The notes beneath the pieces were generated by a model, which made no database searches, was not told the DNA's origin, and saw only the letters and a list, made by a program, of their open reading frames with translations. 64,000 bases of DNA from Ophelia neglecta (lineage: Eukaryota): NCBI GenBank assembly GCA_965285935.1, contig OZ260663.1, positions 104,036,001-104,100,000 of the forward strand, given 5' to 3'. Shown here one piece after another: positions 7,756 through 45,182 of the stretch. The translations under genes and the position numbers were made by a program. How positions within the stretch are numbered: the first letter of the stretch is position 1; the number at the start of each line of letters is the position of its first letter.

Positions 7756-7787
<32 letters not shown>

Positions 7788-8187: not shown

Positions 8188-8819
8188 CCCCCCCCCCTCA
8201 CTACCCCCATCCCACACACCATTCCTCACCCCTCACCCCTCCCCATCCTCGCTAGTCCCACCCCCCACTCACTACCCCCATCCCACACACCATTCCTCAC
8301 CCCTCCCCATCCCCGCTAGTCCCATCCCCCACTCACTACCCCCCATCCCACACACCATTCCTCACCCCTCACCCCTCCCCATTCTCGCTAGTCCCACCCC
8401 CCACTCACTACCCCCATCCCACACACCATTCCTCACCCCTCCCCATCCCCGCTAGTCCCATCCCCCACTCACTACCCCCATCCCACACACCATTCCTCAC
8501 CCCCTCCCCCCTCCCAATCCCCGCTAGTCCCATCCCCCACTCACTACCCCCATCCCACACACCATTCCTCACCCCCTCCCCCCTCCCCCTCCCCGCTAGT
8601 CCCATTCCCCACTCACTACCCCCATCCCACACACCATTCCTCACCCCCTCCCCCCTCCCCATCCCCGCTAGTCCCATCCCCCACTCACTACCCCCCATCC
8701 CACACACCATTCCTCACCCCCTCCCCCCTCCCCATCCCCGCTACTCCCATCCCCCACTCACTACCCCCATCCCACACACCATGTCTCACCCCCTCCCCCC
8801 TCCCCATCCCCGCTAGTCC
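8188..8819. repeat. C-rich minisatellite, about 10 units of ~62 bp, intronic
   Basis: Unit approx CCCCACTCACTACCCCCATCCCACACACCATTCCTCACCCCTCCCCCCTCCCCATCCCCGCTAGT. It explains the Pro/His- and Gly-rich spurious ORFs at 8117-8710. Confidence 0.95.
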
Positions 8820-15900: not shown

Positions 15901-17088
15901 CAAGCTTTTAATAGTTACTTATCGTTTCCGTCTGTGCCCTGGGTTATGTCGTGATGAATCAATCAATCAAAATTATTAGGAAAATTGCCAATTTTTTATA
16001 TCTTATGTATATAGTTGTCCTACGATACAAAGTGGGCAATATTAGACCAAACACCCTGTTGGGTTCCGAGGAGTAGATTGTTGTGATACTGGCCAGGGGG
16101 TTACGTTAAATTAGGTCATAATAACCTATTTAATATACATTTGAGAGATGGAAATGGATAATGTCGGATGAAGCTTTAAGGCTAGAGAGAAGTAGCAATT
16201 GTAGAAGGACGATAGATGTCTTGCAAGATGATTTGATGAACTCAGACTTGCATTGCAAGCAGATATCAAAAGAATTGCAAAATATGTGTAAATTTAAAAT
16301 AATGATAATAATATAAACATATTGCGAAAATGGACTTCAAGCTTTTACCGCTTAACGAAAACAATTAGAATAACAATGGACATGAGCATAGAAAACAGTT
16401 TTGAATTGGGCTACTACAGCCCAAACAATTAGTATAAGATTGATGGATAAAGGACCCATCAACCAATAACAAACAAATAAATACCCAATAACATTACTTC
16501 AATAACTCACACACCTGCAAACGGGTACGTTAATTTTCGATTAAGAATGTATGTTAGTAGTTTGCAAACAATTTCAAAGAATAAAAATTCAGCTTCAAGA
16601 TGTTATTTTTTTTAAAAAACTTATTATGCATAAAGTCTAAATGGTTTCAAAATCTTCACATACAAGGACAGAGATAACGATATTTCTAAATACGGCAATA
16701 CCTGCAACTTGTTATTAATACATCCTCAATTAATTTAGGAGTACAATGCTCCAACTGTTGTAACCGATAATCAGTTACATCTGATCATTCTCATTATGTG
16801 CCGTGTATTTGCTTCCAGACTGCGGCGATGCCACTGAATGCCGTGCCGTCTGTAACCCTGGATGTAAAGACGGTTTGTGTGAGAGGGCCACAGGGCTGTG
16901 TAGTGAGGGGTGTGACTTCCAGGAGATGGAAGACTGGGTGGTAGGGCCAGAATGTGACATTACAATACGTGAGTATGTACTATGATAAATATGGCATTAT
17001 TAAATACTACTGTGAGTTGATGTTTTCTCATGCGCCCCCTCGGCGTAGCGTATGTATATATTGAAACAAATCTATATAATTATGTTAT

Positions 17089-17539
17089 TATTCTAAACAA
17101 AACTCAAGTTTCTTTCGTTCCAATTTTATTTCGTATTTCTCAGACCATGTGCTTTACTGAAACAAACAAATTACATAAATACACTGCATGACATTACAAT
17201 ATGACTAGACAATTACAACGGACACACGTTTCTCATTATTAACTCATTGCTTTGACACTTACCGAATTTTATGGCTTCTAACATTCTAAGTGCTATTCTA
17301 ATTTTGACACACGACCATCTAAGACGCTTGACTGGCAGAAAAAGACCGAGTGGCTAATGAAGCTTGTGCTCTATCACAAACTGTGACGTCACCGGTTTGC
17401 GCTGCCTACGACAGCCAAATCATATGACACAGGATAAGCACATCACAAAGCGCGCTCCTGCGAGCAAAGCACTAATTACTGGCAAGTAGTATGGCATGGC
17501 TCCGTCCATATGGAGTAGCAGCATGACTTGACCATTACA
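17089..17539 (-). repeat. 3' LTR of the BEL/Pao element
   Basis: Direct repeat of 23769-24219 (offset 6680); minus-strand ends TGTAATGG...TAGAATA. Confidence 0.95.
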
Positions 17540-17926
17540 CACCGGGCCCCAAATTGGGAACCTTTGACCAATTTACATCAACAATGGTCAATTAAATTTT
17601 TAGAATACAATCATATCGATTATACGGTAACATAGCATTAGCTGTACAATTACAAATACTAGAGGCATACGGTAACGGAGTCATCTTGTACATCAAACAC
17701 AGTTCTACCTGTGGATATTATTATTTAACATACTGTACATACATACACTTATACACGTAGTGCAATTACTATTATCACAGTTCGAGGCATTAATTTTTTT
17801 TACATTACATGTAGTTACATTAACACATTAATATACAACCACAAAGATAGATCTAGACGTCTCTCAGAACCCGTAGTTTTATTACAATTCATATTAGCTT
17901 GAAATGACAGGCATACATTATTTGAA

Positions 17927-20900
17927 TCATCCGTCCGCTTCCAACAATAAAGACAATTTTTGTATTGGACGGCGTATTTCACTAGAGGCTGTTTGAACCG
18001 TTACATCTCTAACCAAACCTTTTTTGTCTTTGAACACGCCTGTGACACGACCAAAACTCCAAGAACTGCGCTGCTTGCTGTCGATTACCATGACAATATC
18101 ACCAACTGTTAAATTTCTTTTTGGTTGAAGCCATTTTTGTCTCTCTTGTAACAGAGGAAGATATTCTAAAGACCACCTTTTCCAAAACAAATTTGCAAAA
18201 TGCTGTACTAGACGCCAACGCTTTCTAGCGTAGGAATCTGACTGATCGAAAATGCCTGGGGGTATACTTTCCCCAGCCTGTCCCAATAATAAATGATTTG
18301 GAGTTAAAGCATCCAGGTCATTGGGATTTTCAGACAATTTTGAAATAGGCCTGTTGTTCAAAATGGCTTCGACCTCACAAAACAAAGTACTCAAACTTTC
18401 ATCATCCAGTTGCCCTGGCTGATTACTCAACAGCGAGAACAAAACCCTCCTGACTGATCGTATAAGCCTTTCCCAAACACCCCCAAAGTGAGATGGCGAG
18501 GGAGGATTAAACTCCCAGTCAATACCTTTCTGGTGCAAAGTTTCTACAATTTGGGATTGTTCTAAATCTGAAATAGACTCTTTCATTTCCCTGTTTGCAC
18601 CCACCATGTTGGTACCATTGTCGGATCTAATTTTCTTTACCGGCCCTCTTCTACTCACAAATCTTCTTATTGCATTTATACAATAGTCTGTATTGAGGGT
18701 ATGGGCTAATTCTAAGTGCACAGCTCGGACATTTAAACATGTGAAAATGACACCATATCTCTTAACTAAACTCCTTCCCCTCTTAACATCAAAGGGTCCA
18801 AAATAATCCATGCCAGTATATGTGAATGGCGGATCATCACTAATCACTCTATCTCTGGGAAGGTCAGACATCTTCTGTTCCATACACTTTGCTTTATACT
18901 TTCTACAAATTATACACCTTGCAATCAGACCTTTGATAGCTGTGCTTGCACCTGCTATCCAATATTTCTGTCTCAGAGCAGCTAGCATTGTGTTTTTGCC
19001 CATGTGACCGACTAGTTTGTGAGTGTATTTTAATATTAGCCCTGAGACATGACAATTTTTTGGCATAATGATAGGATGCTTTGCCTCATGGGAAACACCT
19101 GCCCTTTCTAATCGCCCCCCTACTCTAAGGAGACCATTCTCAATGTAAGGATCAAGTTTCCTTATTGAACTTGTCTTTTTCAAAACACCACCCTCTTGCA
19201 AGGCGGAAATTTCAGCTTGAAAACATGCCCTTTGGACGCTACATAAAATGACCTTTTCGGCGCAATTCAGCTGTTCTGATGATAATATAATTGAATTTAC
19301 ATTCAGCCTATCATGGACACGAGAATTTTTTATTTTGTCCTCGACTAGTAATTCACACTTATCACTATCAGGCTCCCTTTCAGACATTTCCTTTCTAAGT
19401 ACCCTGCGCCGGGAGACCCACATCAGCAACTTGTCCTTAAAAACTAGCAACCAAGCTACAACCCTTTTTAGTCTGCTCCATGAAGAGAATGACTTAAATA
19501 GGTCTTCTTTCTCGTTAGCTACCTTACCACAAGATATAACTGCAGGGACAGACTGCACTTCGGAGTCTTCTGAAGAAAGTGACAACTTTAATCCTGTCTG
19601 ATCCGGCCACTCACACTGTGGTTTCCATAGAAACTCTGGACCATTCTTCCAAACTGAATTTTCAATAAATTTACTCACACTCAAACCTCGGGAGGCCAGA
19701 TCTGCAGGATTATTGACACCTTCAACATATCTCCACTGGCTGGTATCAGTTGATTCCCTGATAACGTTAATGCGATTGGCAACAAATGTGTGGTATCTTG
19801 CAACATCATTTGCTATGTATCTTAAAACAGACATGCTATCAGTCCAAAATACAGTTTCTGATACCACCAGATCTAATTCTTCCCTTAACATGAAGTAAGT
19901 ACGCACCGCAAGCGTTGCTGCTGTAAGCTCCATACGCGGAATTGTTATCTTTTTCAAAGGAGACACCCTAGATCGTGCAAAGAGGAAACAACAGTGAACA
20001 TTGGCGTTCTCGTCCTCAATACGAAGACAGGAAACACAATCGTACCCTTGTGAACTAGCATCCCCGAAATTGTGAACCTGTATTGAAACCACATTACCAA
20101 GACCACCAGGTATAAAACACCTGGGCAAGCTATAACTGGCCAACTCTTCAAACTGACTTATCCACTGTTGCCATTTCTCAGCCTCAATTTTGCCTAACTC
20201 TTCGTCCCAGCCGCGCTGACTCTGACATAATTGTTGAAGCAGTATTTTTGCAGGTAGCACTGCTGGAGCAACAAACCCCAGAGGGTCAAATACTGACGAA
20301 ACCACGGAAAGAATACCTCGTCTAGTGATGGGTCCGGATTTCACGTTTGTTCTAATACTGAAAGTATCAGACTCTGCCGACCAACATAGACCTAATACAT
20401 GTCCTAATGGTAGCCCTTTACATTCAATATCTAGCTCATTTACTTCAGTGGCTCGGTCCCTTGCGGGAACTGCATCTAATACACCTTTGTGATTGCTTAA
20501 CCACTTTGTGAGACGGAATCCACCTTTCTCACACAAGGCAATCAACTTTCTCATCATGGTAATTGCTAAATCGACAGAAACTAATGACTTCAAAAGGTCG
20601 TCAACATAGAAGTTTCTGTGGATACTTTCTACAACCTTTTCTTCAAATTCTAACTGATGATCAATTGCAGTTTGTCTAAGAGCAGAAATCGCACATGCCG
20701 GTGAGCATGTCGCGCCAAATAAATTCACTGTCATCCTGTGTACCCTTGGTTCTAATGTGAAATTACCTTCCGGCCACCAAATGAACCGGAGACAATCCCT
20801 ATCGTTTTCGGCGATCCTAACCTGATGAAACATTGCTTCGATGTCCGCAGTGATTGCTACCGGGCTCTCCCTGAATCTAAGCAAAACCCCTATCAGAGTG

Positions 20901-22234
20901 CTGGTTAAGTTTGGCCCCGACAAGAGTAATTTGTTCAGGGAGACCCCATTGAATACTGCGGCACAATCGAAAACAACACGGAGTTTCTGTTTATGAGGGT
21001 GGTGAACCCCATGGTGGGGTATATACCATACCCTACCATCATTGCGATCTAACTGGGAAAGCGGGACCTCTTCCGCATACCCTCTCTCTAACATGGCAGA
21101 CATGAAGGCATTATAATCCTTTCTAAACTCTGGGTTCAATTTCATTTTGTTCTGAAGTGTTTTAAGCCGCCTACTAGCCTGCTGAATGTTATTTGGAAGT
21201 ACAACATTGGGATTTCTAAAGGGCAAATTGACCTGGTAGTGTGTTCCTGTGAACTTCATGGAGGCACTAATCTTTTCTAAAAATAGACTATCTTCAACAC
21301 TATGCTCTTTCCTGTCGTCTACAACCCGCTCAGGAAAGTCTAAATTAATGGAATTTCTTACAAGTTTGTCCAGATTTCTTAGTTCTTCACTCTTTTCAAT
21401 ATCTTTGGCTTCAGCCTCAATATGGTTCACTGAAAACACTGCACTATCTGGGCCAGAGTTTCTAATGACATTCCAAGGAATCCAACCTAACCTAGACCTG
21501 GTAGCATGGGGAGACCCTTTTGGCCCTACTATAATTTCCAGAGGGGTAAAGGCGTCAACCACATCACATCCAATTAACAAGTCTATATCTGCATGTATCT
21601 CTGAAATCTGTATTTCACTCAAATGAGGCCAATTTTCCAAATCAGATTGTTTAGGAATATGGCTCCTTGAAACAGGCATTTTCTCTGTAGTATACAAACA
21701 CGGAATTTCAATACTTTCACTACTGGCATTACCTATTCCACTAATAACCAAATTTTTCAAGCAATTGGTATACAAAGTGCTTTCGCCAGTCATAGTTTTT
21801 ACAGTAACCTTCTGCCTACGGCCTGAGCCACCCAATTCATACATAAGCTTTTCTGTGCAAAAGGTTTTAGTGCTGCCCGAGTCAAGAAAAGCGTAAGTTT
21901 CAACAGCTTTAATACTACCTGCTCGGCTAACTCTTACAGGAATTATGGCCAAGGCGGTCTCCGACAGACGTTCACCAATAAACGCACTAACTTCTTTACA
22001 CTCAGTTTGATCATTTCCAGGAACTGAAATTTTGTCAACATGCAAGAATGTGTTGTGTCTACCTTTACACCTTTCACAACATGGCGTTACCTTACAATCT
22101 CTGATCATGTGCTGGGAACCCAAGCACCCGAAACATCTACCCTTTGACCTTAGAAATGATAACCTTTCTTCCTTTGGCTTTTTCAAGGCTACTGGACATA
22201 CAGGTAAAATGTGAGTTTTGGCAGAACAATACAC
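17927..22234 (-). CDS. pol: BEL/Pao pol polyprotein (Zn knuckles, aspartic protease, RT, RNase H, integrase)
   Basis: CFGCLGSQHMIRDC and CERCKGRHNTFLH knuckles; AFLDSGS protease; WYIPHH...RVVFD...DIEAMFHQV...FYVDDLL RT; FGDASSQ...IPRMEL...WTDS...NPADLASR RNase H; GMDYFGP...SDNGTN...GVWER integrase. Confidence 0.95.
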   Translation of the reverse strand: MYCSAKTHILPVCPVALKKPKEERLSFLRSKGRCFGCLGSQHMIRDCKVTPCCERCKGRHNTFLHVDKISVPGNDQTECKEVSAFIGERLSETALAIIPVRVSRAGSIKAVETYAFLDSGSTKTFCTEKLMYELGGSGRRQKVTVKTMTGESTLYTNCLKNLVISGIGNASSESIEIPCLYTTEKMPVSRSHIPKQSDLENWPHLSEIQISEIHADIDLLIGCDVVDAFTPLEIIVGPKGSPHATRSRLGWIPWNVIRNSGPDSAVFSVNHIEAEAKDIEKSEELRNLDKLVRNSINLDFPERVVDDRKEHSVEDSLFLEKISASMKFTGTHYQVNLPFRNPNVVLPNNIQQASRRLKTLQNKMKLNPEFRKDYNAFMSAMLERGYAEEVPLSQLDRNDGRVWYIPHHGVHHPHKQKLRVVFDCAAVFNGVSLNKLLLSGPNLTSTLIGVLLRFRESPVAITADIEAMFHQVRIAENDRDCLRFIWWPEGNFTLEPRVHRMTVNLFGATCSPACAISALRQTAIDHQLEFEEKVVESIHRNFYVDDLLKSLVSVDLAITMMRKLIALCEKGGFRLTKWLSNHKGVLDAVPARDRATEVNELDIECKGLPLGHVLGLCWSAESDTFSIRTNVKSGPITRRGILSVVSSVFDPLGFVAPAVLPAKILLQQLCQSQRGWDEELGKIEAEKWQQWISQFEELASYSLPRCFIPGGLGNVVSIQVHNFGDASSQGYDCVSCLRIEDENANVHCCFLFARSRVSPLKKITIPRMELTAATLAVRTYFMLREELDLVVSETVFWTDSMSVLRYIANDVARYHTFVANRINVIRESTDTSQWRYVEGVNNPADLASRGLSVSKFIENSVWKNGPEFLWKPQCEWPDQTGLKLSLSSEDSEVQSVPAVISCGKVANEKEDLFKSFSSWSRLKRVVAWLLVFKDKLLMWVSRRRVLRKEMSEREPDSDKCELLVEDKIKNSRVHDRLNVNSIILSSEQLNCAEKVILCSVQRACFQAEISALQEGGVLKKTSSIRKLDPYIENGLLRVGGRLERAGVSHEAKHPIIMPKNCHVSGLILKYTHKLVGHMGKNTMLAALRQKYWIAGASTAIKGLIARCIICRKYKAKCMEQKMSDLPRDRVISDDPPFTYTGMDYFGPFDVKRGRSLVKRYGVIFTCLNVRAVHLELAHTLNTDYCINAIRRFVSRRGPVKKIRSDNGTNMVGANREMKESISDLEQSQIVETLHQKGIDWEFNPPSPSHFGGVWERLIRSVRRVLFSLLSNQPGQLDDESLSTLFCEVEAILNNRPISKLSENPNDLDALTPNHLLLGQAGESIPPGIFDQSDSYARKRWRLVQHFANLFWKRWSLEYLPLLQERQKWLQPKRNLTVGDIVMVIDSKQRSSWSFGRVTGVFKDKKGLVRDVTVQTASSEIRRPIQKLSLLLEADG

Positions 22235-23700
22235 GATTCTTCTTTAGTTACACTAGTGGTGGCAAACGTCCGAGAAGAAACCCCCCTGCTGTCCTTTGGA
22301 CCAGGAAGCCTTTTGCATTTGTCCTTCACTGATTCGCCACAGCTATTTACTGCCTCTCTACCAAACACTGGATCATTTAATTTCTTGGATTCTCTTTTCA
22401 CAAACTGTACGAATTTATCAAAGGACACATTCCTACCAGATTCATTATTAGCTACAACACCACGCCACCTATCGTGAAGCTGATATGGTAATTTGCCTAA
22501 CAGCCTTTTTATATTGACGGGAAAGTCAAAGGTTTTCATTGCATCAATAGTTTGTGTGGCATACAAACACTCTGCTAAAAATACACTGTAATTGTCTAAA
22601 CCCCTAGGATCGTCATAACGAATTTGTGGCCATTTCAGGGCCTTTTGCAAAAATGCATTGGCAATTACATGTTCATCTCCATACCTCTCTGCAAGTTCTG
22701 CCATTGCGGCGGTATAACCATTTTCCAAATAACTGAAACCACTTACAACTCTACTTGCTTCTCCAACTGTGAACTGTTCCAAATAGCTCATTCTTTCATC
22801 GTCACTTTCTGTATACATCACCACCCTTTGCTGAAATTGCCTCATAAATTTTTTGTATTCAACACAATCACCACTAAATTTCTTAATATCAATTTGAGGT
22901 CTCCTTAACTGATTTACAACCTTTGAAATTGAGTTAAATTGACCGTTGTCGGACTCTACCAAGGCTAGGCTGTTAGATTTAACACTGACATCGGGTACAT
23001 TACTCACAATTTTGCTATGATAAGTGACCTGATAATCTTTACCTTGAATTGATTTACCTGCAGAAACGTTTTCGAAATTGTCTATTACTGATTTTCTGGC
23101 CTCTGCAATAGCCAACTGAGTCTTTATTTCGAAGTGTTCTTCTTCACAGCGAAGGTTTACCTTGGCCAGCTCCAATCTTTTCTTTTCCTCCAAAGAGGCG
23201 GACCTTGCCAGGAGCTCTGCATGTTTCTGTTCCTCCCGAAGTAGTGCACTGCTTCTTTTAGAATGGCTTGAACTGCTCTTGGTAGATACAGATGATTCTT
23301 GGTAAGCATTTCCTTCTCCCAGAACTTCCTTAGCCTTGCTGCTCAAGATAAACTGTTCTGTCGTGGATTTGAAACCCTTTAGGCTGTCCAGCCAAGGACT
23401 GAACGTCTCTTGTCGCTCCTCCTTACCAGCGGTATCTAGAAGAGTTTCCACTTCCTCTTCCAATATCAAGAGTTCATCAAACAAACTCACCCACTTCTTG
23501 TATTCGGAGGCCACTAACGGCTGACTGTTTTCCACTGTCATTAGATAGCGCGTGTCCTTCATTTGCCTGCTGAGCTTCCGTACATGAGTGTCTATTTGAT
23601 CAGTCTTTACGCTTATCGTGTAAGCTAACCCCTTGTCGGTCAACTTTCTTATTCTTTCCGACTCCCGTCTTTCTTCTTCCATGTCGCCGTTGGCCGCCAT
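22189..23700 (-). CDS. gag: BEL/Pao gag
   Basis: 503-aa ORF with a coiled-coil N-terminus and a FSGDCVEYKKF...LAERYGDEH...LLGKLPYQLHDRW capsid-like region typical of Pao gag. It is out of frame with pol at the first Zn knuckle. Confidence 0.9.
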   Translation of the reverse strand: MAANGDMEEERRESERIRKLTDKGLAYTISVKTDQIDTHVRKLSRQMKDTRYLMTVENSQPLVASEYKKWVSLFDELLILEEEVETLLDTAGKEERQETFSPWLDSLKGFKSTTEQFILSSKAKEVLGEGNAYQESSVSTKSSSSHSKRSSALLREEQKHAELLARSASLEEKKRLELAKVNLRCEEEHFEIKTQLAIAEARKSVIDNFENVSAGKSIQGKDYQVTYHSKIVSNVPDVSVKSNSLALVESDNGQFNSISKVVNQLRRPQIDIKKFSGDCVEYKKFMRQFQQRVVMYTESDDERMSYLEQFTVGEASRVVSGFSYLENGYTAAMAELAERYGDEHVIANAFLQKALKWPQIRYDDPRGLDNYSVFLAECLYATQTIDAMKTFDFPVNIKRLLGKLPYQLHDRWRGVVANNESGRNVSFDKFVQFVKRESKKLNDPVFGREAVNSCGESVKDKCKRLPGPKDSRGVSSRTFATTSVTKEESCIVLPKLTFYLYVQ

Positions 23701-23768
23701 AATCCTGGGACTTTCCAGACTCTAAAACTCTAAGTCTCTCACCTCGTGGTAGCCAATTCGTAAATGGA

Positions 23769-24219
23769 TATTCTAAACAAAACTCAAGTTTCTTTCGTTC
23801 CAATTTTATTTCGTATTTCTCAGACCATGTGCTTTACTGAAACAAACAAATTACATAAATACACTGCATGACATTACAATATGACTAGACAATTACAACG
23901 GACACACGTTTCTCATTATTAACTCATTGCTTTGACACTTACCGAATTTTATGGCTTCTAACATTCTAAGTGCTATTCTAATTTTGACACACGACCATCT
24001 AAGACGCTTGACTGGCAGAAAAAGACCGAGTGGCTAATGAAGCTTGTGCTCTATCACAAACTGTGACGTCACCGGTTTGCGCTGCCTACGACAGCCAAAT
24101 CATATGACACAGGATAAGCACATCACAAAGCGCGCTCCTGCGAGCAAAGCACTAATTACTGGCAAGTAGTATGGCATGGCTCCGTCCATATGGAGTAGCA
24201 GCATGACTTGACCATTACA
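23769..24219 (-). repeat. 5' LTR of the BEL/Pao element
   Basis: Direct repeat of 17089-17539, followed by TSD GTTAT. Confidence 0.95.
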
Positions 24220-27200
24220 GTTATTATACTAATACATCAATTTGATTGAATGTATGATTATTTACTTATATTAGCAAAGATGAACTTCGGCTCATCTGAA
24301 GTTGTCCCGACCAATCCGGTATCAGTAACCACAAACTCGGTAACATGGAGATGGAAAGAAAATACATACATTTCACACAGAGCCGCTTCTTACATCGGGT
24401 ACCGTATATACTACAGACTGTATACCACGTCATCAGGGGGGTGGTCACTGGGAACTGACGTGCCTTACTCCACCGAAGAGTGGCAGCAGGGGACTGTATC
24501 AGGATTGCAACCTGGCACAAGGTACCAGTTTGATCTGGCTGTCTATAGACAAATGACTGGTAAAGAGCCAATGGAAAGTGACAACAGATATGGAACATAC
24601 AGAAGCAACTTTCTGGAAGCCATGACTATATATACAGGTAGGATATTGGCAATAATGCCTCAAATTTCTAATAGGAAACACTCCAATTGCTACAGCATTA
24701 TTTGTGCACAAGGAAACAGTTATATTTATTAATCAGAATGTCCGGTTGGTTATTACGGCCCGTCCTGTACAAAGAACTGTAGTTCCCTATGTAAATGTGG
24801 GTGTGACATGGAGAGCGGAGTGTGTACAGTCTGGAACTTCAATGTGGACAGCGAATGGCGGGCAGGGGACCAGTGTAACATTATAATACGTATGTAATTA
24901 GCGCACTTGATGCATTATGAATTGCCAAGTTTTTAATTCTCACTAAGTTTAATGGTATGATTATACTGAAACTGTAATTGTGTAGTGGCTGACTAAATTT
25001 GTTTATGGTGCATACCACACAGAAAAGCAGCCAGGTTCGGAAGTATGTATGTATTGCTAATACCTTAACTATATTCCAGCCGTTATGCGTTTTGGTGGGG
25101 CTGATATTGTTGAGACCACCCCTGTATCTGTGTTTACGGACTCAGTGACCTGGAGATGGAAGGAGAGTACCACCAATATCTCAGACAGAGCCGCTTGCTA
25201 CATCGGATACCGTATATACTACAGATTCCATGCAACGTCATCATGGACAGAGGGAGCCGACGTGCCATACAACAACACAGAGTGGCAGCTGGGGACTGTA
25301 TCAGGACTACAACAAGGGACACGGTACCAGTTTGATCTGGTGGTCTACAGGGTAAATGTAGATGGCGAAAAGGTGGAAAGCCCGACACATACTACGCCGA
25401 CCGCAAAGCCACTCTGGATGCTACAACACTGGCAGGTATAATGCGTACAAACTAAATATGTTAAAATTAATGGTGCGTGCATGTATCACCATCCAGATGC
25501 GTTGGGTAAATAAATTCAAGCGATGAAAAAAGATAAAAGTCAGCATAAACAGTTTACGGACCTAAGTTTTTCTTGGATGCTCACGCATCGACATTTGAGT
25601 ACTGGTTTACGGTCCATCACTTTGCGAACGAATGCGTTCTACATAAAATTATAAATAACCAATTGTTCCTATTCCATTCCAGACGTTCGTCTATCAACCC
25701 GTCCTAAGACCAGATCTTTAACAACTACAACAAAAGTTACCGTTATTACATCAAGTGTATATACGCACTCACCGTTCTATACCCAACCTAGTACGATCAG
25801 GCCCGGGACTAAGATAACAACAACAATTTCCGTTGGTCCAACTCGACTATATACGAATCCACCGTCTCAAACCCCACAAAGTACGACAAAAAGGGGTACT
25901 AAAACGACCTTAGGTACGTCCATTAAGTCAACGTTTTTAGTTCCAGTTAATATATCACGAGTTAAGTTAAAGTTCTATATGCAACCTAGTGCTACCACAA
26001 CGGGACCAAGACAAGAACAGGTACGTAAAGTATTGGCAGGAATTCATACCAGAAGTATTAAGTATTTACAATGGGCTTAAATCTTAGACATTAGTTTCCG
26101 ATGGCAGAGAAACAAACACTAGGATTAAATCAATGACGTTACAGCAACTCTTAAGGTAGATCGTTCTCAGAAGCATGAATATATAGCTACACAGGGGAGG
26201 CATCTCCTACAATTTTTTTGCAATGATTGCTTAATATATTTAAACTTGTATTACAATACACACATTTGCAATAAATATGCATTTACCTGAGATACAAATC
26301 TATTATTTTAACAGATAAATAAGAAGATTGAGAATATGACCAATATTTACAATTATTTAATATCCTGACTTATTATTGCGTTCATTACATCTTGTATATG
26401 ATGGACTTATTCTTAAAAAGGGCATTAACTGAAATTAGTTTTCTGGATAATATCATGATTGCTAGGAATGTAACAGAAGCACGCGCTTCACATGCACCAG
26501 TTGGAATCGTAGAACATCTTAATACTCTTAACTCCTCCAACAATATATTGTCTCATATCTCAACCTCACCATACACTCAAGGAAGTGGACAACTTACGAC
26601 CAACATAAAGGAAAGCAGTGTCGTACCCACATCACATCCGGTCCAGATGACGTCTACAGTGGTAGGAGGCGCCGTGGGGGGAGTACTCGGGATGTGTTTT
26701 GTAGCGGGATTACTTATATATATATTGGGTACGTATGTGAATATATGCAGATACAGCGCCAGAAATTGATGCAACATAGTATAAAATAAGTACTATTATG
26801 TGTGATAGAATAATATGTTTTGAATGCGCTGTGTTGTGTTGTATTATACGGCATTCATTAATGTATGCGGCGCTGTGGTTTTTGGTTCCTCGTGATTATA
26901 GATTTAATGGACGATTCTAGACCAATCAATTGTTTTTTGTCTGCCTGGTATCAATCCCGTTTTTATCTTCTGTATGTCTAACATGTTAACTAGTCATGTT
27001 AATAAATAATGGTGGTATTCAGACTGTTTATCCAGAGAAAAAAGTCAGCAAACCAACAAGCTGAAGTTCCTACCGACCATCAACCATCCCAGTACGAAGA
27101 CATCGATGCGTCCAATTTGCAGACTATGGATGTAACACTTGACAATGTCCAGGTATACGAAATACCAATTGCAAATAACATGCCTCAGTATGGTAAGTAC

Positions 27201-29522
27201 CCTTGGTATTGTCTATAGTAAACCCTTAATTTCGAATAAGGGACTAGCATGTGCCTTTACAATGGAACAATGGATTTTTTCTCTTTACATTATAAACTAC
27301 TACAATAGCCATGTATTTATATAATGGTATATAGGGCAGTTTGTTTGTCTTTTATCCTATTATTTCGTGAGCAGTATTAACAGCCCTAATACCAATGGAT
27401 TCAACGTGCTTTAAAGTTATGTGCATGCTTAAATAGAAATTGTAAAAAATGCATTCACATCTTTCTCCTCAAATCCCAAGTGTTGCCATATGGCCTTCAA
27501 AACTTAATGGATGCCACTCTAGCGTTATCAACAATCCATTACCAATGGAAGGCTATATACGTTCTCATGTTAGTAAAAGTGCAATAATCTTTCTTTTTTT
27601 TAGAAAACAGGGATGTGGTACAGTACGAATCTCTCATTTTACCGCAGTTGTTTAGCAATGACGATTATGAGGAAGTCAATCTGGACAATAACAACTGAAT
27701 GATTTCTTTGGAACAATTTAAGCCCTGCTTAAACTATATCATGATTCGCGATAAAAAGTAGATTTCAAATTAATCATATAAAAGGTACCTTGAGTACTCT
27801 TTAGCCCAAGAATTATTTACTGCTTGCAGACTTTTAGCTGAAAAGGGACAATTGTGACATTTTGAAGAAATACAATAACCGTATTATATTACAATAATAA
27901 CATATAGGGGCATCATATTGATTGTGGCCACATTATTAAAAAGCTTATACAATAAGTCTGGTAATATTGAATGATTAATGCAAATGTTTATTAAATGTAT
28001 ATAGCGCCAATTACAAGAAATGGCTCAATGGCCCTTTGCAGAAAAATGTATATGACCAAGAATTAGGGCTAGAACCATACCATATATTTACAATATTGTG
28101 TGCTAATGTGGAAAATTGGGGCATGAAACGAATTGTTTTATATTGTTTGACATGACATCATATTAGATGCACCTCACGCACCAAATGGAAGGCTATTCCA
28201 GACAACTGGAGCAGAAGTCTGGTATGCCTTATCACCATACCTGCTCCCTTTGAGACAGGTCTGACAAACCATAGTTGGTTTGCTGATTTCAGAGATCGAA
28301 ATGGACTAAACTGAATTAAATGTTGTGACAACTATATTGGTCCATACCATGGAGAGCATTAAAAGACAAGAGAGCAACATTGAATTTCAAAATCATGAAC
28401 AATAAATGTACGACATTGTATTGATTTAATGACTCTTAACATGATGTAGGTATAGCACGAAATCCATATAGGTAGTCGTGGTATTTTTGGAGGCTGATTT
28501 AGCGTATGCAACCAGGGGGTGGGATATGGGGTGGGTTGGGGATTTAAGGTTAGATAAGGGGCTAATTAATGCAAGATTTGGCCTCATAACAGTGACCCAA
28601 TATCAATGCTATAGTTAATAATAAGAAATAATATGAACAGTCCTCCTAACAAACATTTATAATTTAAAAATAATTGGTCTTTGCTCCATCAAAATGCATC
28701 TTGGCAAGTAATATATCATTGTTTAAACTATTTTTTTCCTTGCTGTTAACTAAGTGCCACGTTTATGTTGCAAAAGCCAATAGATCTTTATAACACAGTG
28801 CGTATCATTTTGTCTATAGTAAAGGTTCTAATGTAGTAGACTGATTACGTCAAAAAAAGTGATTGGTATATTTATAGGGTAGGCCTACTCTGTGAGATTG
28901 ACAGAGCAAAGTATTGCCAATTTAAATTAATAATCCACGGCCGATCGGATATTCAGTAAAACTCGTAAGTCCTGGATCTATAATCTATAGGAGTTATAGT
29001 AGTTATGTAGGCACATAAATGCACTGACTGTTTGGAATTTTTGGAGAAGAAGTTGGTCGGGATGGGCACAACAAGGATAAAAAACGTAGCATACTTTTAT
29101 AAATGCATAGGAATATGCTCGCTTCAGTAGAAGAGGAAACATTTGCAGGAATAAAGTGGGATTTCTTTTTTCATGCAGGGGACAAAATTTGGAGCTTAGG
29201 CTGCACTGGAATAAGGTACATATATTCAAATATTGACATTTGGCTTTCTTTGATATTAGGGAGAAAACCTTGAGGATTTCTGGAAATGAATAGTGACTGT
29301 AGTGGGTTTAGTAAACTGTTTAAATGAGACCGAGAATTTTTAGTAGAAACCGGGGGCTGTATTTGGGTGCCGTGACACATCTTGGACCTTTTCATTCGTA
29401 ATTAAACCCGGCATGAATAGTGAGAAAAAGTTAATAACAGGGCGAAAACTGGAGACATTTATTTCGCCATGAGATACATCCAACATCCGGGAGGTTCTCG
29501 GGTATGCCAAACCGGTGGGGAT

Positions 29523-30925
29523 CCCTGTATTTGGCGGATGTTTACTGGATGTACTGCACCCGGCAATACAGCAGAATTCTATGGCCATCCGAGGCCGTCT
29601 ACGGTGCAGCATATGTGGGTCAGTCTCGCGAGGTCTCGCGGGATTTAGTGCAAAATAATCGTGTTTATTGTTTTTAACACCTATGAAGTAATAAACTCCA
29701 AGGCTTAGACTAATATATTTCGCTCTTAATGGTGCTAGTGTGGCTGGTTCTAATTACACAATTAACATTATATGGCACTATCAACGAGATTTAATACCTT
29801 TTTTTCCATTAACTATGCTGCGGCATTAATCTCCCTCCAAATTTGGCCAATGACTTATTTGTTTTGTGTTCTGACTGGAAACCTGTTAAATACTTCTTAT
29901 TGCGAGTGCTTTCAATTTTTTTTTCGTTATAAGTGTATTTTATGTTGGGGAGCTGGGTATTTATTTTGTGATGTGAGTGGCCTATGGTCACCGTTTCCTG
30001 ACGATTTCGGACCAATTAAATAGATTATAATGTCTTGTTTTGTCTGCCGGGTATCCACTCAAGTTTCTTCTAATTGCTAGATTTCTTCGACATTATATTA
30101 TACATCAAATTCTCTGATTTAATGGGAATTTTACCTTTCTGTTAATTCTTTCTCATACACATTGTAAAAAGGCCTTAATCTCAGAAACGTATGTTTAAAC
30201 TAGCACTCCGCAACCTTAACGGTACGTACCTCTTGTAAGAGTGGATTTATTAAGACGCTCCACTGCATTAAAAGCTATCAAATCGTTTATAGTGTAAATA
30301 CATAAGGTCGGGAGGTTTAGGGAGTTCCTTTGTGGAGATTACTGACGCCTTAGGGCAGAGGACGGGGGGGGGGGGCGTAGTGTGTGAGGAGTCAATACTT
30401 ACTCCCACAGACTTCCATAATGCAATCCCTTTTCCGCAGCTCAGGATCTGCCCCGAAGCATTCACTTCACATTGATAGAGCGTGCGGCAGTGTCGTGGGC
30501 TGTGTCAATCTCTATCAGTTTACACAGGCGTGTCCACAGGCAGTGAATGAAGCCTTCTTTATATGGTAAAATATATGAACCCCTGTATCGTCTAGACATG
30601 GGCCGGGAGACCAACAGTCGTCTTTTATGGCAGTTTTATCTTGCCCCTTTAGTTCAGAAAAGGGGTAACCTGGAGGCGAGGGGTATTTCTCTTCCCTCGT
30701 CCTCCTCTTAATATGTATGAACGTACACTTATGTTCGTTCCCAAAAGTTTATGTAGCGGGTTTTTATTATTGAATAGCTAAAAGTCCGAGTCCTGTAAAT
30801 GGTGTTTTAATCTGCCCATCAGGCACGCGATGAGATATTACTGGCTGACAGCTTTCCCCGATACATCCTACATTATGGTTGTATTGACAGGCAATGCTAA
30901 CGGACCATTTGATATCTTGAGGGGG
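29523..30925 (+). repeat. Copy 2 of the ~1.45 kb duplicated segment (downstream of receptor B, immediately upstream of the PTP exons)
   Basis: Collinear with 11493-12975, with scattered substitutions and indels. Confidence 0.9.
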
Positions 30926-33900
30926 GTGGAGGAGTATGCGAAATTTTTGAAATCGCTGACATGTTCTCTCGACACGTGGAGGATATGTTTTCGATCAGTA
31001 TACTTCTCGTCAACCAGCTATCGTTCTCCTTTATTTTCCCACTTGTCCATGCATCGAAAGAAATGTTTTGAAGGCAATTATATTATTTTCTTGCCATACT
31101 AGACGTTAAAACATCGACAATATCGTCACGTACAACAACTGTTTTAACTCGCATACCACATTCTACGAATAGCAGGACGCCCATGACGCCAACTGTCTAT
31201 AAGATCCCGACGACAAAGCAAACATTGCCTGCAGTTGGACCTACTTCCAATGAAAACCATATCAACGGTGTTCCCATTATGAATGGTACTATCGCGGGAG
31301 TCGTGGTAGCTTGCTTGGTCCTCATCGGACTGGCTGTTGGTGTTTTTGCTTTTGTCATTCTAAGGCGAGTATAAAAGATAGTCAGGGAGGCTTATATGAT
31401 ATATTCATCTCTTTCTCATTACTTGTTTATTCGAAAATATATCCAGCTCATTTATGTAACAGTATTTTTGTCTTTAAAGGCGAAAAGAGGGCACAATGGT
31501 GATATTTCGCCCCAAAAAGAGAGCCTATGCACAATCCAATGATGTAGAAAATGGTGAGGAAATGAGGTCCATAATATCTGACTAGGTCCCAGGTAAACGC
31601 GATGAATAACTTTGCTTTTCCGCCCGGTAGTTAAAGTCCTTTCAGTGCCATGGTCATTTGCTATTCATGACGCCTGATCAGTCGGAGACTTGATTGATTA
31701 TCAAAAAAACATAATTCCACCATAAATCAGTATTTGTATATTTATATTAACAGTATTATCTGAAACCCCGAAGAGACCAGTGAAAAAGCAGCAAACGGCG
31801 AATGCAGCAGAATCGACAGAGGGGGCGCCACAAAGAATTGATGATACCGCAGCAGAAACAGAACCCATGCCTCCATCACTACCCTGCGAGTCGATTATAA
31901 TCGAGGTGGATGGTTTAGGCGGTTACATTGAAGACACATTAGATCAGCCAGACGGATTCAAACAGGAGTTTAAAGTAACAAATTTGGCCTTTCATAAACT
32001 GCTTCCTACAATATAATTATACTATTTGCATAATACAGAAAAAAACGTCCAAACAATCGTTTCCCTTGTGTACTTAATTGTAATATGGGATGATTCAAAA
32101 ACGTGTATGTATTTCAGGATATTCCAAATTGTCTTCTGCTACCTGCAAATGTCGGGCGACTGGATGCAAACAATGCAAAGAACAGGTTTAAAGATATCAC
32201 TGCATGTACGGAGATTTCTATAGTATTCAGAATAAAAATTGTTCATGATGAGAAGTACAGTATTTTTTTTCACCCTTGAAATTGTGAAATCCATTAAATG
32301 TTCGAACACATAATAAGCGTGACTTTAATTCAAATAATTATAAAAATAAGTTTGAAAAATGTTTATTCTTGACGCCGTTTACGGTTGCTGGACTATATCT
32401 TCTAGATGACTGTAACCGCGTGGTGTTGGACATCTAGAATCCCGATACCGAGACTGACTACCTAAACGCTAGCTATATAACTGTAAATAAATTTAAATCC
32501 TTATTAATGATATACAAATAAATTTGTAAAATTAAAGCCCGATAAAATCAATTATCAGCTATGAGAGTTTAGCACTCTGGCCTTACTGCAATATTATCTT
32601 TTCCTGTTTTTTCTTCTAAATATATACATTTTGCTGCGTTTAATTGCAGGGTTGCACTGGTATTGAAAAAAACATATATTGCCTCACAAGGTCAGTAATT
32701 TTGTTGCAATATCCACCCAGTTTTAATATTACACCTGCTTCATCTTCCAATTCATGAACCCACTTCATTTCAGGGTCCAAGGTCAAAACTAGGGTTGATT
32801 TTTGGAGGATGATTTGGCAAACGAAAGCCAATAGAATCGTCATGTTGACCAAATTGATTGAGGGAGACTGGGTACTGTGCTTATGTCTCTAGGTTTCTAG
32901 GCTCAGAAAATCAATATGTTAATATAATGTAGGCGTCGCATACATGTATATGCTACCAAGAACGATTTGTAATTAAAGTCACACGTTTCATTTATAGAAG
33001 AGGGCATTTACATCATTATAATAAATTAAATACTGGACAAGTCATTTATCCTTCTGTGATCATTAAATTGATTCATTGTGATTGTTAGCTTTCTTTCTTT
33101 CTTCAATCAAACTGTCTCTGAGCTTTATCTTTAACCACTTAGTTAAAACACGCTGATCTATTTACAGCGGAAATGTGAACAGTATTGGCCAAAATCCATG
33201 GGTGGCAATACCGAGTACAGTAGATTTGTTGTGACCACTGTGAGCTGTAACGTGTTTACAGATTACCAGATTACCATACTCAGCGTCAGGAAAGGGGTAA
33301 GTACATAGTAACGGCGTTATCAGAGAGAGTAAATGGTTGTAATGAACGGGGCAAGATACAATAACAAGGTTGCTATGAAAGAGACACGGTACTTTAACAG
33401 GGCTGCTAGGAACGGGGCAAGATACAGACATAAAGGTCTTGTCATCGAAATTACCAGTTTAATTGGACGCGTTTCGAATACATGATTCTCTATGAGATTT
33501 AGTTTGCCTCCCGGGTATCTATACTGGTGTTCCAACTAGTAAAGCAGTTATAGATTAGTTCATGTAAAATTTGTAGCCCCCGTATTATATATATAACTCC
33601 GATAGAAACAGACTCGTACAGTACGACACCTCCAGTTCCTGCGTTGGCCGGATAAATCGGCAACGGACCAAGCTTACCCACTGGTCGTCTTCCGTAGAAA
33701 GGTTAAGTCTTTCGATGACGTCACCGAGGGTCCAATGGTTGTGCACTGCAGGTAATACAACACATTTTATACATCAGCTGAATGTGTGAATAATAACAAT
33801 GTGTCCGCAATACAAATGAACCATATTTTTTCCCCAAATACAATAGCTCTTACTTGGTCAGTATTGTCAACAATGTTGAATTAATGAGTTTTATTAATAT

Positions 33901-34106
33901 GAATGGGTAGAAACTATATGGAGAGCTCTTATTGTCGTGAACAATAAAATACATCTGTTTCATTGTTCCAGCTTTTATGTGTATATAATACATACTTGTA
34001 TCTGAAGTTAACGAAAAATAATGCAAATGAAGCAAATAACCATGTGTCAATGACCCACAATGCTAGAAAACTATATGCATTGACACGATATGATCTTTGT
34101 TTTAAT

Positions 34107-34162
34107 GGGCGTGGCCGAGTGGTTTAGATGTTCGCCTCGGGAGAGGATCTACTCCCACCGCT
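34107..34162 (+). mobile_element. Possible tRNA-derived SINE head
   Basis: A-box-like TGGCCGAGTGG and degenerate B-box-like GGATCTACTCC; no intact cloverleaf. Confidence 0.35.
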
Positions 34163-34180
34163 GATGATATTTTGTTGTTA

Positions 34181-35007
34181 TACCAGCGCCATAAAGTCCG
34201 GAGACTAGAAGTAAATTTTTAAAATCATACGATGCCAGTAAAATACCCCTGACTCGCATACTGTCTGTCGTATAACTGCTGTGTATAAAAAAGGCTGCTT
34301 CTCATTGGTGTGCTTTGTGTAGCGTTGAAACTATTTTAACCCGGAGGAAAGGGACGAGTTGTCTAGGGGCTTTGTAAGATCTCCGGAGAAAACTGCTCAG
34401 ACATCGGTTATTCAATATGAGTCGTCTTAAATGGCGCATTATCTACCTGGTCAATATACATGGCAACTCAGTATATTTCATATCTAAATTTCTTTTCACA
34501 CCGAGGATTGAAAGTGTATAACATTATACTCCAGTTTTACCGCACGGGTGATCTGTCGATCAAGAACAATCCAGTCGACCACGCATACTCACGCGTGAAT
34601 GGGTCTTGGTGCAAATTTTAGTTGACACAAATAGATACTTTCTAAACGTAAACCAATTAAACATGGGTGGAGTCTAATCGTTTTTTTAGTTGCTGGAGCC
34701 TACTTCATCCGGCTTATACTCATAGAAGCAGTTTGCCCATACCTTCAATATAATTAGGTCATAACTAGGGTATTTCACAATAGATGGCAGTATTGCTCTG
34801 TGTGACCAGTGTATCTTGGGAGGCTGTTCACACGTAATCGCTGAGAAAAAAGCGCAGACAAACAGTAAAAAGCAACCGAAGCGTCATTTGCCTTGTGGGC
34901 CAATCAGAACACACCATATGAGCGCGTCAGACATGAAACTGCATATAGATTCGCGTCTTCAAGTTGTTTTTCCCCACTACTGGTCTCCAGATTTTATGGC
35001 GCTGGTA
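34181..35007. mobile_element. MITE / non-autonomous DNA transposon (TA-flanked, Tc1/mariner-like), intronic
   Basis: Imperfect ~30 bp TIRs: TACCAGCGCCATAAAGTCCGGAGACTAG at 34181 and CTGGTCTCCAGATTTTATGGCGCTGGTA ending at 35007. TA on both sides and no coding capacity. Confidence 0.75.
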
Positions 35008-36180
35008 TATATCAAATAATCTTGTATATTCCCCACGTCGACGTAGATGTGTACTGTTCGACCGTATGGAAGCAATACGAATCAATGCAGACCCTGAGAT
35101 AAAACACTTGCATTCGAAAATACGTACCCTAGAAGATGAAATTAGGCATTGGTTAAACCGTTAGTGACTTTCACAAATAACATCTGACGGAGCAGTGTGT
35201 ACTAGGAATGTTACTACTCCTGACCCAAAGTCAACATGTGACTCGAGTAGCCCAAACTAATAGACAGGAGCCTGGAGGACAGTCCATTGGGGATGGTTAC
35301 AGTAGTGAAAGAATCAGAACGAGAAGACCGCACCAGCCCCTCATTCCCTGGATGGACTAGGTTAAAACCTAGGCAAAGGAATCCTTAAATCGTAATAGTA
35401 GGTTCTAGATACGATGATGGACCGTTATGTAGGGCTTATAGCCATTGAATTTACTGATGTCCGGGCATACCGCGCATATGGACAAGGTAAAGAACCGAAC
35501 ATTTTAACCGAAAAGAATGTGCATAATCTCTACAATGAAAATATATTAGGCCGCAAGGTTTACAAGCTATATGGCCAGATACAAAAAAACACTAGATGAC
35601 ACCTTCTGGCCTGACGAAATTACCCGACAGCGATAAGAAACCAGTGGTAATAAACAGATTGGAAACAATGATTTGTCACAGTATAAACGTAATAGGATCT
35701 ACCACTGAAGTAGACAGCTCCACCATAAATCAAATCCTTACGTTTATCGCGGCTAGATATTTGACAATGCACGTACAAACTAATATGAATAAAACCATAT
35801 ATGCCTTCTGCATTTGAACTGATGTGTGTTTGCTAGTTCTAAGCACTGTTTAAAAGAGAATTACAGAAATACCAGTTTGCTTCATGTAATTGTTGAAATA
35901 ATGGAGGGCGTAATATGTCATATGATGGACAAATGGACCAGGGATTCCAATGTTATTAGTCCACCACAGGGAGCACAACAAAGCAAATGTTCTAGTAGAA
36001 TTCAATTTATCAATGCAGTTTCATACATGATATAATCACATCAGGTGAGAACTTAAAATGGCCTGATTGGATTTATAAAACAGCTAAATCCTACAAATTT
36101 AATACATCACCAGTTTGCTGTTTCCACAAAGTTGGTGCACTGTAGTCAAACGATTGATTCTCAATTTCATGATGCCGTAA

Positions 36181-36381
<201 letters not shown>

Positions 36382-38251
36382 TAGTATATAAGAAAGATTG
36401 TTGGGTGCAAATCCAACTTAAATAGTAATAGGGCAACGTCATCGTAGCCAGGACGGCAAACATTCTTTATACTGAATTATTTCTTGAAGTTTCCTTTCAA
36501 AACACTTTAATCTATTCACTATGTATTTCGTCTTCGTATTATTTAAGTCCCAGTACGAATTTGTATACCGGGCCTTACTGGAAGCTACAACCTGTGGGGA
36601 CAGTGCCATACCATGTGCCAACCTAAAGAATAAACTGAAGATTCTCAACTACCACAACACAAGTGGACGGACTCCTCTGCAACATCAATTTGACGTAAAG
36701 GAAAATATTTCATTATTAATTCATTAGTGTAATAGGTATCTGAACGCATTTACTTTAGAAGTATGATGTAACATTTACAATTAGTTCTATATATTTAAGT
36801 ACATGTTTATTCAAACAGTGGCTATTGTGAATGCATATTTAGGTTCTGACCGGGATCAAACCGTTCATATCACGAAGTAACCTGGTCGCTTTGAAAGAGG
36901 ACAATATCAGCAAGAACAGAAATAACGACATCGTGCCATGTACGTTAAGCATTTTTTTCTTATTATGAATCAAAAACGACACGGAATTGGAATTGATGAT
37001 TGAAATTCTACAGTTTGGTTATAAAGCCTCTATCAATGTAATTGATATTTTCACTTTTGAATAGCGAACGACGACTTCCCCACTTTAATGACAAGTATAG
37101 AAGGAGAGAGCACATACATCAACGCAGTTTACGTGGATGTAAGTCTGAATTTATAACAACCAAATGTTAACATTATGTGGAGGCAAGGTGAACTGGGAGT
37201 GGATAACCCACAGACATTCCAATGTCTACCGTTCTAAAAAAAACCTCAGTTTAGGTCAACACACATCAACTCCTCGCTGCACAATGTTTCCATACCTTTT
37301 GCCCAAATAACTTCAGCTGCAGGCCCAATGAGAATACGTAATGGTCAGTCTCATACTGATATGATAACAGTGGCCATTACCGAAATGATATAAAGCTGCT
37401 ACAAACTAGTACTTTTAATGGTTAACTTGAAGGGTGATTTTCTATTATTTCTGAATCTGAATATTTTCCCAATTGTAGACTTACCGTAGAGAGCAGGCCA
37501 TGGTCTCCACTCAGATACCACTTCCCAGTACCATGAACGACTTCTGGAGACTTGTCTTCCAACAGAGATCGTCTGCTATTGCACTGTTAACTGCTGAGGA
37601 TGCACATGGCCAGGTAATATGAAGCACATTCCGATGAGGCACAGTTCTGTTGAATGCATAGATTAAATGACATATATAATTCGGCTACACCGTAACGCTT
37701 AATATACACTCCACAGAACACCATAGCTTCAAAAGGTAGAGAAACATGAACAAATATTTGTGATGTCGTTATTAGCCATTGCACTGTTGATTTGAATATG
37801 TGAGTTAATTCCTTATACAGTGCGGTCTTTGGATGCACTTAAAACTTTTTATATTATAATATTATCAGCCGTCCCCTACATACTGGCCTACTGATGTGGG
37901 GAGAGTTCAAGTGTACGGAGGTTTAGAGGTGGAAACTCTTCACATGAAGAAGGCCGGCCCTATTGATGTCCGAGACTTTAAGATCAGGGCAACAAACCAG
38001 GTCCGCTCATAATTCGTATCGTATGGATTAAATGTATTACAATATTGTCAGTTTCACCATCGAGTATAAAGTTTTGTGAACATATCACGCCATAACATAT
38101 TAGGCCTCACTTTCGATATTTATATTATAGTCATTTATTTTGTAGGATGACGGCGAGCATCTGACTGTCAGACAGTTCCAGCTAACACATTGGCCAGGCG
38201 CCAGCGAGCTACCAGAGATAGGAGCCCTATTAGATCTGATAGACACAGTAG

Positions 38252-38545
38252 ACAGCTGGGTGATAGCTAGCGGTCCGGCCGGCAGGACCATAGTACAATG
38301 TATGTAAGTGTATAGATCTTCTGAGGGCCATTCCGTTCGGCTGGGTAGGAGCAAACGGCCAGGCCGATCGGATTATTGTACAATGTATGTAAGTTAATTG
38401 ATCTACTGAGGAAAAACAATATCTGGCTGGTTGAGAGCGAGCGGTGCGGCCAACAAGACCATACTGTAGTGTAGGTAAGTATAATTATCTACTGAGGACC
38501 ATTATGTGTGTCTGGGTGAGTGCGACCAGCCCGGTCGACCGGAGT
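38252..38545 (+). repeat. 3-4 degenerate ~86 bp tandem copies of a PTP exon end plus splice donor (also at about 43122-43345)
   Basis: Repeated GCTGG(G/T)T...GGCC...GTA(C/G)...GTAAGT...ATCT(T/A)CTGAGG at about 38252, 38339, 38425 and partially 38512. Confidence 0.75.
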
Positions 38546-39057
38546 TTACTTCACAGTTTGTTGAGTCTCAATGTTATTGAGACAATGGGAGTCATTTTGT
38601 CTGACCTGAAGTTTAATCTTCCCATATTTCTAAAGACATATAATGTTAAACTAGGCGCAAAAATAACATACGGTCTTAGTATTTTATTAAACGTCATGTA
38701 TTATGATACATCGCGACTCAATGTCAAAGTATGACTCCAAATCATATTTAGAGTGCCATTTATTTATATAGGACCCAATGCAATATTGATAATCGTTACC
38801 TTTTATACTTGAACTAAAATTGAGTCTGTATCAATTTACAATTTGTGACAAATGTGGTGCTGAAAAGACTATGCCTCATTTTGTCCAAACATAAATGCTC
38901 TTTTGATTTAATGTATTGACCTCAGGAACGGGGCGACGAGGTGTGGGCTGTTCTGCGCCGCGAGCTGTATGTTAGAGATGATGAAAGTTGATCAGGAGGT
39001 CGACGTATTTCTCGCCGTCAGATACGTATCCAGCAGAAGACCCCAGTTTGTCAACTC

Positions 39058-44346
<5,289 letters not shown>

Positions 44347-45182
44347 CTGGTAAGAACCTTTGGCGCTATACCTCAATGAAATCATATCTAGAGTATAAGC
44401 AATGTCCTTGGCGCTTATATAATATAATAACATTGAGTCTTTTTTTTTCAATTTTCATGTTCACGCATTTTAGTTGATTAATTCATTATAGCTTGAGAAC
44501 TACACTTTGTTGTATGGCTGTGCATTACTAGGGCAATGGTCACAGTGGTATTTTTTATTATATATATCCAGGTTCAGTACCAATTTCTTCACGAGGTGGC
44601 GCTGAAGTGCATATCAAGATATGACACATACGCAAAGTTTCAGTGAAAGTAGTGTCCGTGTTTCCTGAGGTTTGCTAACATTGCGAATTTGGATCTGTGT
44701 TAGATTATGATTTATAAGACGTGGATATATCAGTATATATAATGTCGTCAAGTTTCTTAATGGACGTTGAAAGACAGATACATTTTACTGGAATATATAA
44801 GACCATTATACGATTAATGCCCTGGGCATTCGTAGACCCGTGTAATGCCCGTAGATTCATAAAGCTAATTTGTATTACTCACTTTCCAATTCCCAAAACG
44901 CATTGTACAATTTAATTTGTTAAGGAAAAAAAATTCAAAATGGTAGTTCCTGTGAAGTAACTGTCAGTTATGATAATGTTCTTTCCTAAAATATGTTTTG
45001 TTTTAGCCTCATTTTATATTGGTGTGTGTCTTAAACCACTTGAATATGTTAGACTATGTGTATCAATTGTATCAGCTAAGACACTTAGTTCTACTAACTT
45101 AACACCAGGCATAAATCATAAAATATAAACCGCGCACAAAAAACTGCCACTAAAGAGGTTTTGTATTTACTGAGTTTTGCAT

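Follow-up and report, generated by a model that had tools for sequence, protein, structure and literature searches.

The headless receptor protein tyrosine phosphatase (PTP) gene found downstream of a tyrosine-tailed receptor in the genome of the animal Ophelia neglecta (762 Mb) is a 5′-truncated pseudogene: its ectodomain exons, which resembled those of the upstream receptor, were deleted, and further lesions followed. We put the probability of this reading at about 0.9. The analyzed stretch of 64,000 nt, hereafter the window (contig OZ260663.1, positions 104,036,001–104,100,000), contains receptor A, receptor B, the PTP and a G protein-coupled receptor (GPCR). The locus itself represents the ordinary decay of a duplicate. 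Its intact relatives on the same contig carry ectodomains of EGF-type and FN3 exons, and belong to an array in which ectodomains of one kind are attached either to tyrosine (Tyr) tails or to two phosphatase domains.

The original prediction had noted that no 5′ exon lies between the stop codon of receptor B (27698) and the first PTP exon (31103), and had read this either as a truncated duplicate or as one ectodomain spliced to two alternative outputs, a Tyr tail or a phosphatase. The absence was borne out: a scan for signal-peptide exons returned no candidate in 27699–31102 while recovering the two true ones, which belong to A and B; alignment placed no EGF or FN3 exon between 30960 and the PTP transmembrane (TM) exon; and self-BLAST of the window found none in 27699–31102. 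That the PTP is a truncated duplicate is shown by the 5′ exons which intact paralogues possess and by a deletion junction that could be mapped. A search with window positions 31000–33800 produced 46 matches, among which were four close loci: P1 (103.64 Mb), P2 (104.56 Mb), P3 (104.46 Mb) and P4 (104.21 Mb), and a search with the B ectodomain yielded eight close copies, adding P5 (103.78–103.80 Mb). In P2, a B gene with its Tyr tail (P2B) is followed by a second B-like ectodomain that leads into a PTP (P2C); in P3 and P4, a B-like ectodomain stands directly upstream of the PTP. P2C (1189 aa) and P3C (1191 aa) are open 24-exon models with every splice site present, in which signal peptide, EGF, FN3, EGF, FN3 and stalk directly precede the TM exon. 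They encode a signal peptide, one TM segment, a first phosphatase domain (D1) with WPD and the 10-residue motif, and then a second domain (D2), which is the architecture of two-domain receptor PTPs; judging by these models, both genes are intact members of that class and predicted phosphatases. As had been anticipated, the PTP ectodomain is of the EGF–FN3 kind, with 86–93% nucleotide identity between ectodomain exons of B and of the PTP genes. The B-like EGF–FN3 exons are kept upstream in four of the six close PTP copies and are missing from two, the window and P1; two copies are intact and four damaged. P4C and P5C retain their EGF–FN3 exons and have suffered internal deletions. No signal-peptide exon was found in P4C, and P5 (103.79–103.80 Mb) is a second kind of broken copy, in which the ectodomain is kept and the region from TM through the first D2 exons is deleted. 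All six introns of the intact ectodomain are phase 1, and each of the first seven introns up to the stalk/TM acceptor region is phase 1 or shared by descent. The common phase-1 acceptors of the PTP stalk/TM exon at 31103 and the B stalk exon at 25683, which the original prediction had pointed out correctly, are therefore uninformative, being expected from shared ancestry.

The deletion, with its junction at 30949–30952, removed about 7.1 kb comprising the PTP 5′ flank, signal peptide, EGF/FN3 exons and stalk exon 1. Intergenic DNA at 28239–30949 (forward strand, like all features given below unless stated otherwise) is homologous to DNA upstream of the 5′ region of an intact PTP paralogue; within it, 30781–30949 aligns upstream of the P2C 5′ region, and from 30952 onward the window aligns to the P2C intron before the TM exon, 7.08 kb further. 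The headless copy P1 has the identical junction, and contigs, which also cover introns, bridged the junction in three of three runs with 1, 7 and 3 differing letters, the runs being from one sample that may also be the source of the assembly. Because the junction occurs in two genomic copies and in contigs, the loss of the head cannot be ascribed to an assembly artefact.

What remains of the gene has decayed further. The orphaned stalk/TM exon (31103–31364) ends with a GC donor (31364/31365), as in five of five close PTP copies; three distant copies checked have GT. The juxtamembrane exon (31480–31592) contains a premature TAG at 31583. The D1 exons (32118–36694) keep WPD and the 10-residue motif and carry a TAG at 32435, a +1 frameshift within 32650–32690 and a donor lost through a GT-to-GA change after 36375, which brings the tally to two stops, one frameshift and one donor loss. 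The D2 exons and last exon (36843–44645) are split by a tandem duplication of about 4.9 kb, present in the window and not in P1, in which approximately 34181–39058, covering the end of D1 and the D2 exons, is repeated at 39149–44346 with about 90% identity; the second copy contains more frameshifts. P1C has four additional nucleotides before the membrane span, causing a frameshift, and has the +1 frameshift and the donor loss in common with the window PTP. Because two lesions are common to both copies, decay is older than the split between them. Deletion, +1 frameshift and lost donor would all predate that split, and the headless PTP is likely to be debris of unequal recombination in a tandem array.

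The other account, in which the B ectodomain is joined to the Tyr tail or, when transcription reads through, to the headless PTP to give an active phosphatase, is very improbable for this locus. The acceptor at 31103 is intact and in phase 1, joining 25913 to 31103 would reproduce the exon order that P2C and P3C have natively, and a B gene followed by a headless PTP occurs twice, in the window and in P1. Among the B donors proposed as frame-compatible, those at 24637 and 24889 are phase 1 and can be joined to 31103, whereas the donor at 25435 is in phase 0 in the assembly because the second B FN3 exon measures 356 nt, and not 357 or 363 nt as in seven of seven paralogous exons. However, splicing 24637 or 24889 to 31103 in silico terminates the product at residue 313 or 364, some 36 residues beyond the membrane and short of the phosphatase domain, with three more lesions to follow. 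Furthermore, P1 is frameshifted before the membrane span, decay preceded the separation of the two headless copies, B itself is frameshifted and carries a fresh 7.1-kb retrotransposon, five poly(A)-type hexamers lie within 1 kb after the B stop (TGA, 27696–27698), and no similar arrangement was seen among 23 further PTP modules. Even more remote is the idea that the PTP is a receptor with a short ectodomain, like RPTP alpha and epsilon, whose small signal-peptide exon was overlooked. Those two proteins do have short ectodomains, and in PDB the catalytic-motif exon matches RPTP epsilon (E 2.5e-21) and RPTP alpha (E 1e-20) best; but the signal-peptide scan gave zero candidates, the DNA upstream is a deletion junction, all other PTPs examined have an EGF–FN3 ectodomain, and the PTP frame is broken regardless. 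The notion of two outputs holds between separate genes of the array and fails within one gene.

The wider array was surveyed in 880 kb taken within 99.43–100.99 Mb of the same contig, with gene models built by exon-level tblastn. Forty-eight genes start with EGF–FN3, of which 23 lead into a two-domain PTP, 20 into a Tyr tail and one into a TM segment only, four being unassigned; a third tail type occurs in two of these four. All 64 PTP marker matches fall within genes having their own ectodomain, each of the 23 PTP modules is headed, and no Tyr tail was found between an ectodomain and its PTP anywhere in the 880 kb. In a coarse screen, 14 of the 23 PTP genes and 16 of the 20 Tyr-tail genes were free of stops and listed lesions. 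Mean dN/dS is 0.17 for D1, 0.22 for D2, 0.47 for tails and 0.42–0.73 for ectodomains. In place of the usual consensus KNRY, the phosphotyrosine-recognition loop has the sequence KNRF throughout the 23 distant PTP genes and likewise in the close copies. About 30 further PTP exon matches (72–79% identity) were noted at 97.1–98.7 Mb and at 107.06 Mb.

Two PTP genes of the array (99.67 and 100.89 Mb) are followed, approximately 2.6 kb past their last exon, by an orphan Tyr-tail exon of the third type without a TM exon (~99,685,800 and ~100,907,600), whose phase-2 acceptor matches the phase-2 TM donor of the preceding PTP gene. Both outputs from one gene, in the reverse order, could arise there, and these exons are the best remaining site for a single-gene two-output mechanism; we nevertheless consider it improbable. 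The exon is open in both copies, which differ by 4 synonymous and 7 non-synonymous codons, indicating no special constraint; one copy has lost its donor, and the other lacks a second tail exon within 12 kb. Most likely, the orphan tail exons are further deletion debris.

On a tree built from EGF exon 1 and the first FN3 exon of 51 genes (the 43 assigned ones and eight close copies), the two tail classes are mixed as thoroughly as under shuffled labels. Tail class requires 19 changes on it, at least 13 of them on well-supported branches (shuffled-label mean, 17.3), monophyly of the 24 Tyr-tail genes is rejected (p-AU 1.7e-35), and the nearest ectodomain belongs to a gene of the opposite class in 27 of 51 cases. 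All four ectodomain clades hold both tail classes, in similar numbers; PTP domains and tails each form a clade of their own as well in two of the four, and are mixed in the other two. B and PTP genes part ways in the intron after stalk exon 1. The pattern resembles concerted evolution, with ectodomains homogenized among genes that differ in output, a reading which is well supported by the trees, and Tyr-tail and phosphatase receptors have likely been kept alike in their ectodomains by DNA exchange. Either gene conversion or unequal crossover, acting across the phase-1 stalk introns, would transfer ectodomains from one tail class to the other, and the ancestral unit may have consisted of A, B with a Tyr tail, C (a B-like ectodomain plus PTP) and the GPCR, in this order.

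That one ectodomain type can be carried on a small tail or on two PTP domains is already known from the LG5R region of the snail Biomphalaria glabrata. According to the available parts of that account, scavenger class F-like receptors 1B and 1C are, like the array described here, clustered single-pass receptors with EGF-like ectodomains, in which one outer architecture is combined with two PTP domains in 1C and with a small cytosolic tail in 1B, and gene fragments and presence/absence variation are found as well (PMC13712769). LG5R differs in its galactose-binding/fucolectin outer domains and in that PTP genes are a minority (four genes), whereas the present array is EGF–FN3 with the two classes about equal; the sections covered contain no tree test of ectodomain against tail (PMC13712769). 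The SudRes1 MEGF/GBD receptor PTPs of Biomphalaria sudanica likewise form a lineage-specific, EGF-bearing cluster with recent duplication and domain loss; they differ in having a link to parasite resistance from a genome-wide association study, and Tyr-tail twins are not described in the passages covered (PMC12297450). In snails, clustered receptor phosphatases with EGF domains have been connected with parasite resistance (PMC12297450, PMC13712769). In Siglec-11/16, as far as the source was available, recurrent gene conversion between genes of differing output keeps ectodomain regions similar, much as is proposed for the array, and non-functional alleles are common, as are damaged copies here; yet Siglec-11/16 is a single pair with Ig domains and tested ligand binding, as opposed to some 50 genes with a catalytic PTP as one output (PMC5701461). 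The fester/FcoR receptors of Botryllus also constitute a large invertebrate family with ITIM/hemITAM-type tyrosine tails and reported intergenic recombination, but have other ectodomains, and the abstract mentions no phosphatase-domain class (bioRxiv 10.1101/2024.10.16.618699). Our literature search, with most subscription journals and the supplements of both snail papers outside it, found nothing on EGF–FN3 PTP/Tyr-tail twins or a tree test of them.

RPTP alpha/epsilon and LAR (PF00102) match the array PTPs in having D1 with WPD and the 10-residue motif followed by D2; the array PTPs are distinguished by their EGF-type and FN3 ectodomain and their lineage-specific array, the window copy being broken. 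Pfam recognized PF00102 on the window PTP exons. A protein search against longer proteins gave no outside homologue of the FN3 exon at E 0.001, which is weak evidence.

Receptor B is itself damaged, by a frameshift in its second FN3 exon and by the retrotransposon, indels having been seen in the assembly. It comprises a signal-peptide exon (14336–14393, phase-1 donor), EGF-type exon 1 (16819–16968), FN3 exon a (24275–24637; Pfam fn3, E 2.8e-7), EGF-type exon 2 (24737–24889) and FN3 exon b (25080–25435), the last with a 1-nt deletion near its 3′ end, as read from the assembly sequence only. The EGF-type label follows from the cysteine pattern alone, with zero Pfam matches at E 0.1. Next comes the Thr-rich stalk exon 1 (25683–25913, 231 nt), whose homologue in intact PTP genes is the final exon of the ectodomain; by alignment, the B exon most likely extends to 25913, the homologue of the donor modelled to join the TM exon in those genes. 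A longer version ending at 26020 was ruled out, since its 338 nt break the phase and the donor is absent in one of four copies. For the stalk/TM exon (26582–26728), the proposed acceptor is conserved in four of four copies, and an alternative at 26477 was discarded, its AG being absent in two of four. Two of the four copies carry two extra nucleotides within an AT run of this exon, possibly rescued by a donor 4 nt downstream. The second intron harbours a Pao/Bel long terminal repeat (LTR) retrotransposon (17089–24219, reverse strand) with 451-bp LTRs that are 100% identical, two long open frames and a 6-bp target duplication; it ends 55 nt ahead of the FN3 acceptor. The insertion is very recent, as the LTRs are identical and the other three B copies lack the element.

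Receptor A (5791–9136), a paralogue of B, encodes a signal peptide, EGF-type, FN3 and stalk/TM parts and two Tyr-tail exons; its last intron contains a C-rich minisatellite (8159–8830, units of 64–73 nt). The class A GPCR (48215–49297) is split by one in-frame stop at 48647–48649 and moves with the duplicated unit. Another single-pass receptor with cysteine-rich exons lies at 58767–63960, its Tyr tail related to the third tail type; upstream of P3 and P4, related ectodomain exons lie ahead of another PTP, which hints that a second tail/PTP pair may exist. At 151–1986, frames resembling reverse transcriptase, RNase H and tyrosine recombinase occur in what we take to be a DIRS-like element.

With its clustered genes, highly similar ectodomains and different cytoplasmic modules, the array shows the pattern of paired receptors. 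Twins with similar ectodomains are predicted to bind related ligands; the Tyr tail would be phosphorylated and recruit SH2 proteins, and the PTP twin would oppose the Tyr-tail receptor. We propose, tentatively and with rather more doubt than confidence, that the roughly 50 genes constitute an invertebrate paired-receptor system. The role of opposing partner would fall to a catalytic PTP instead of a tail with an immunoreceptor tyrosine-based inhibitory motif (ITIM), the PTP would act on the Tyr tail of its ectodomain twin, and continual exchange of ectodomains would supply both outputs to every new specificity. The alternative that the mixing across the family amounts to neutral churn of an unstable tandem array, without functional pairing of the two classes, falls only a little short of even odds. 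Damage to four of the six close PTP copies, with flags on 9 of 23 distant PTP and 4 of 20 Tyr-tail genes, is consistent with churn, as are the headless tail fragments and the ectodomain dN/dS below 1. On the other hand, each of the four ectodomain clades has retained the two classes in comparable numbers, strong purifying selection acts on the PTP domains, and tyrosine motifs are found repeatedly in the tails inspected.

Several points weigh against our reading of locus and array. The B tail (two exons, 27023–27192 and 27604–27698) matches the ITIM consensus twice and contains one relaxed pair resembling the activation motif (ITAM) and, in a scan with consensus patterns, zero strict ITAMs, which leaves the sign of the tail ambiguous. 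Private changes, 13 synonymous and 26 non-synonymous in the headless lineages versus 24 and 19 in P2C and P3C, point to relaxed selection only marginally (Fisher p 0.048), and the DNA-level evidence rules out a phosphatase product, not transcription across the locus. The distant genes are exon-level tblastn models, five of the 48 being left out of the tree, and some near-identical copies may be haplotypes assembled in tandem, which would inflate the counts. Finally, a Sawyer-type test detected no conversion tract significant after correction in any of 28 pairs (best, 0.084). P2B and P2C share 98% identity in EGF exon 1 and 93.5% overall, and it is from the tree conflict, since no single tract is significant, that we infer the exchange mechanism.

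The array matters more than the locus that led to it, as the ectodomain tree gives both classes one history of their outer part across four subfamilies. It provides a testable model that treats phosphatase and Tyr-tail receptors as twins, with the tail as likely substrate; the candidates are the adjacent pair P2B/P2C and the intact P3C.

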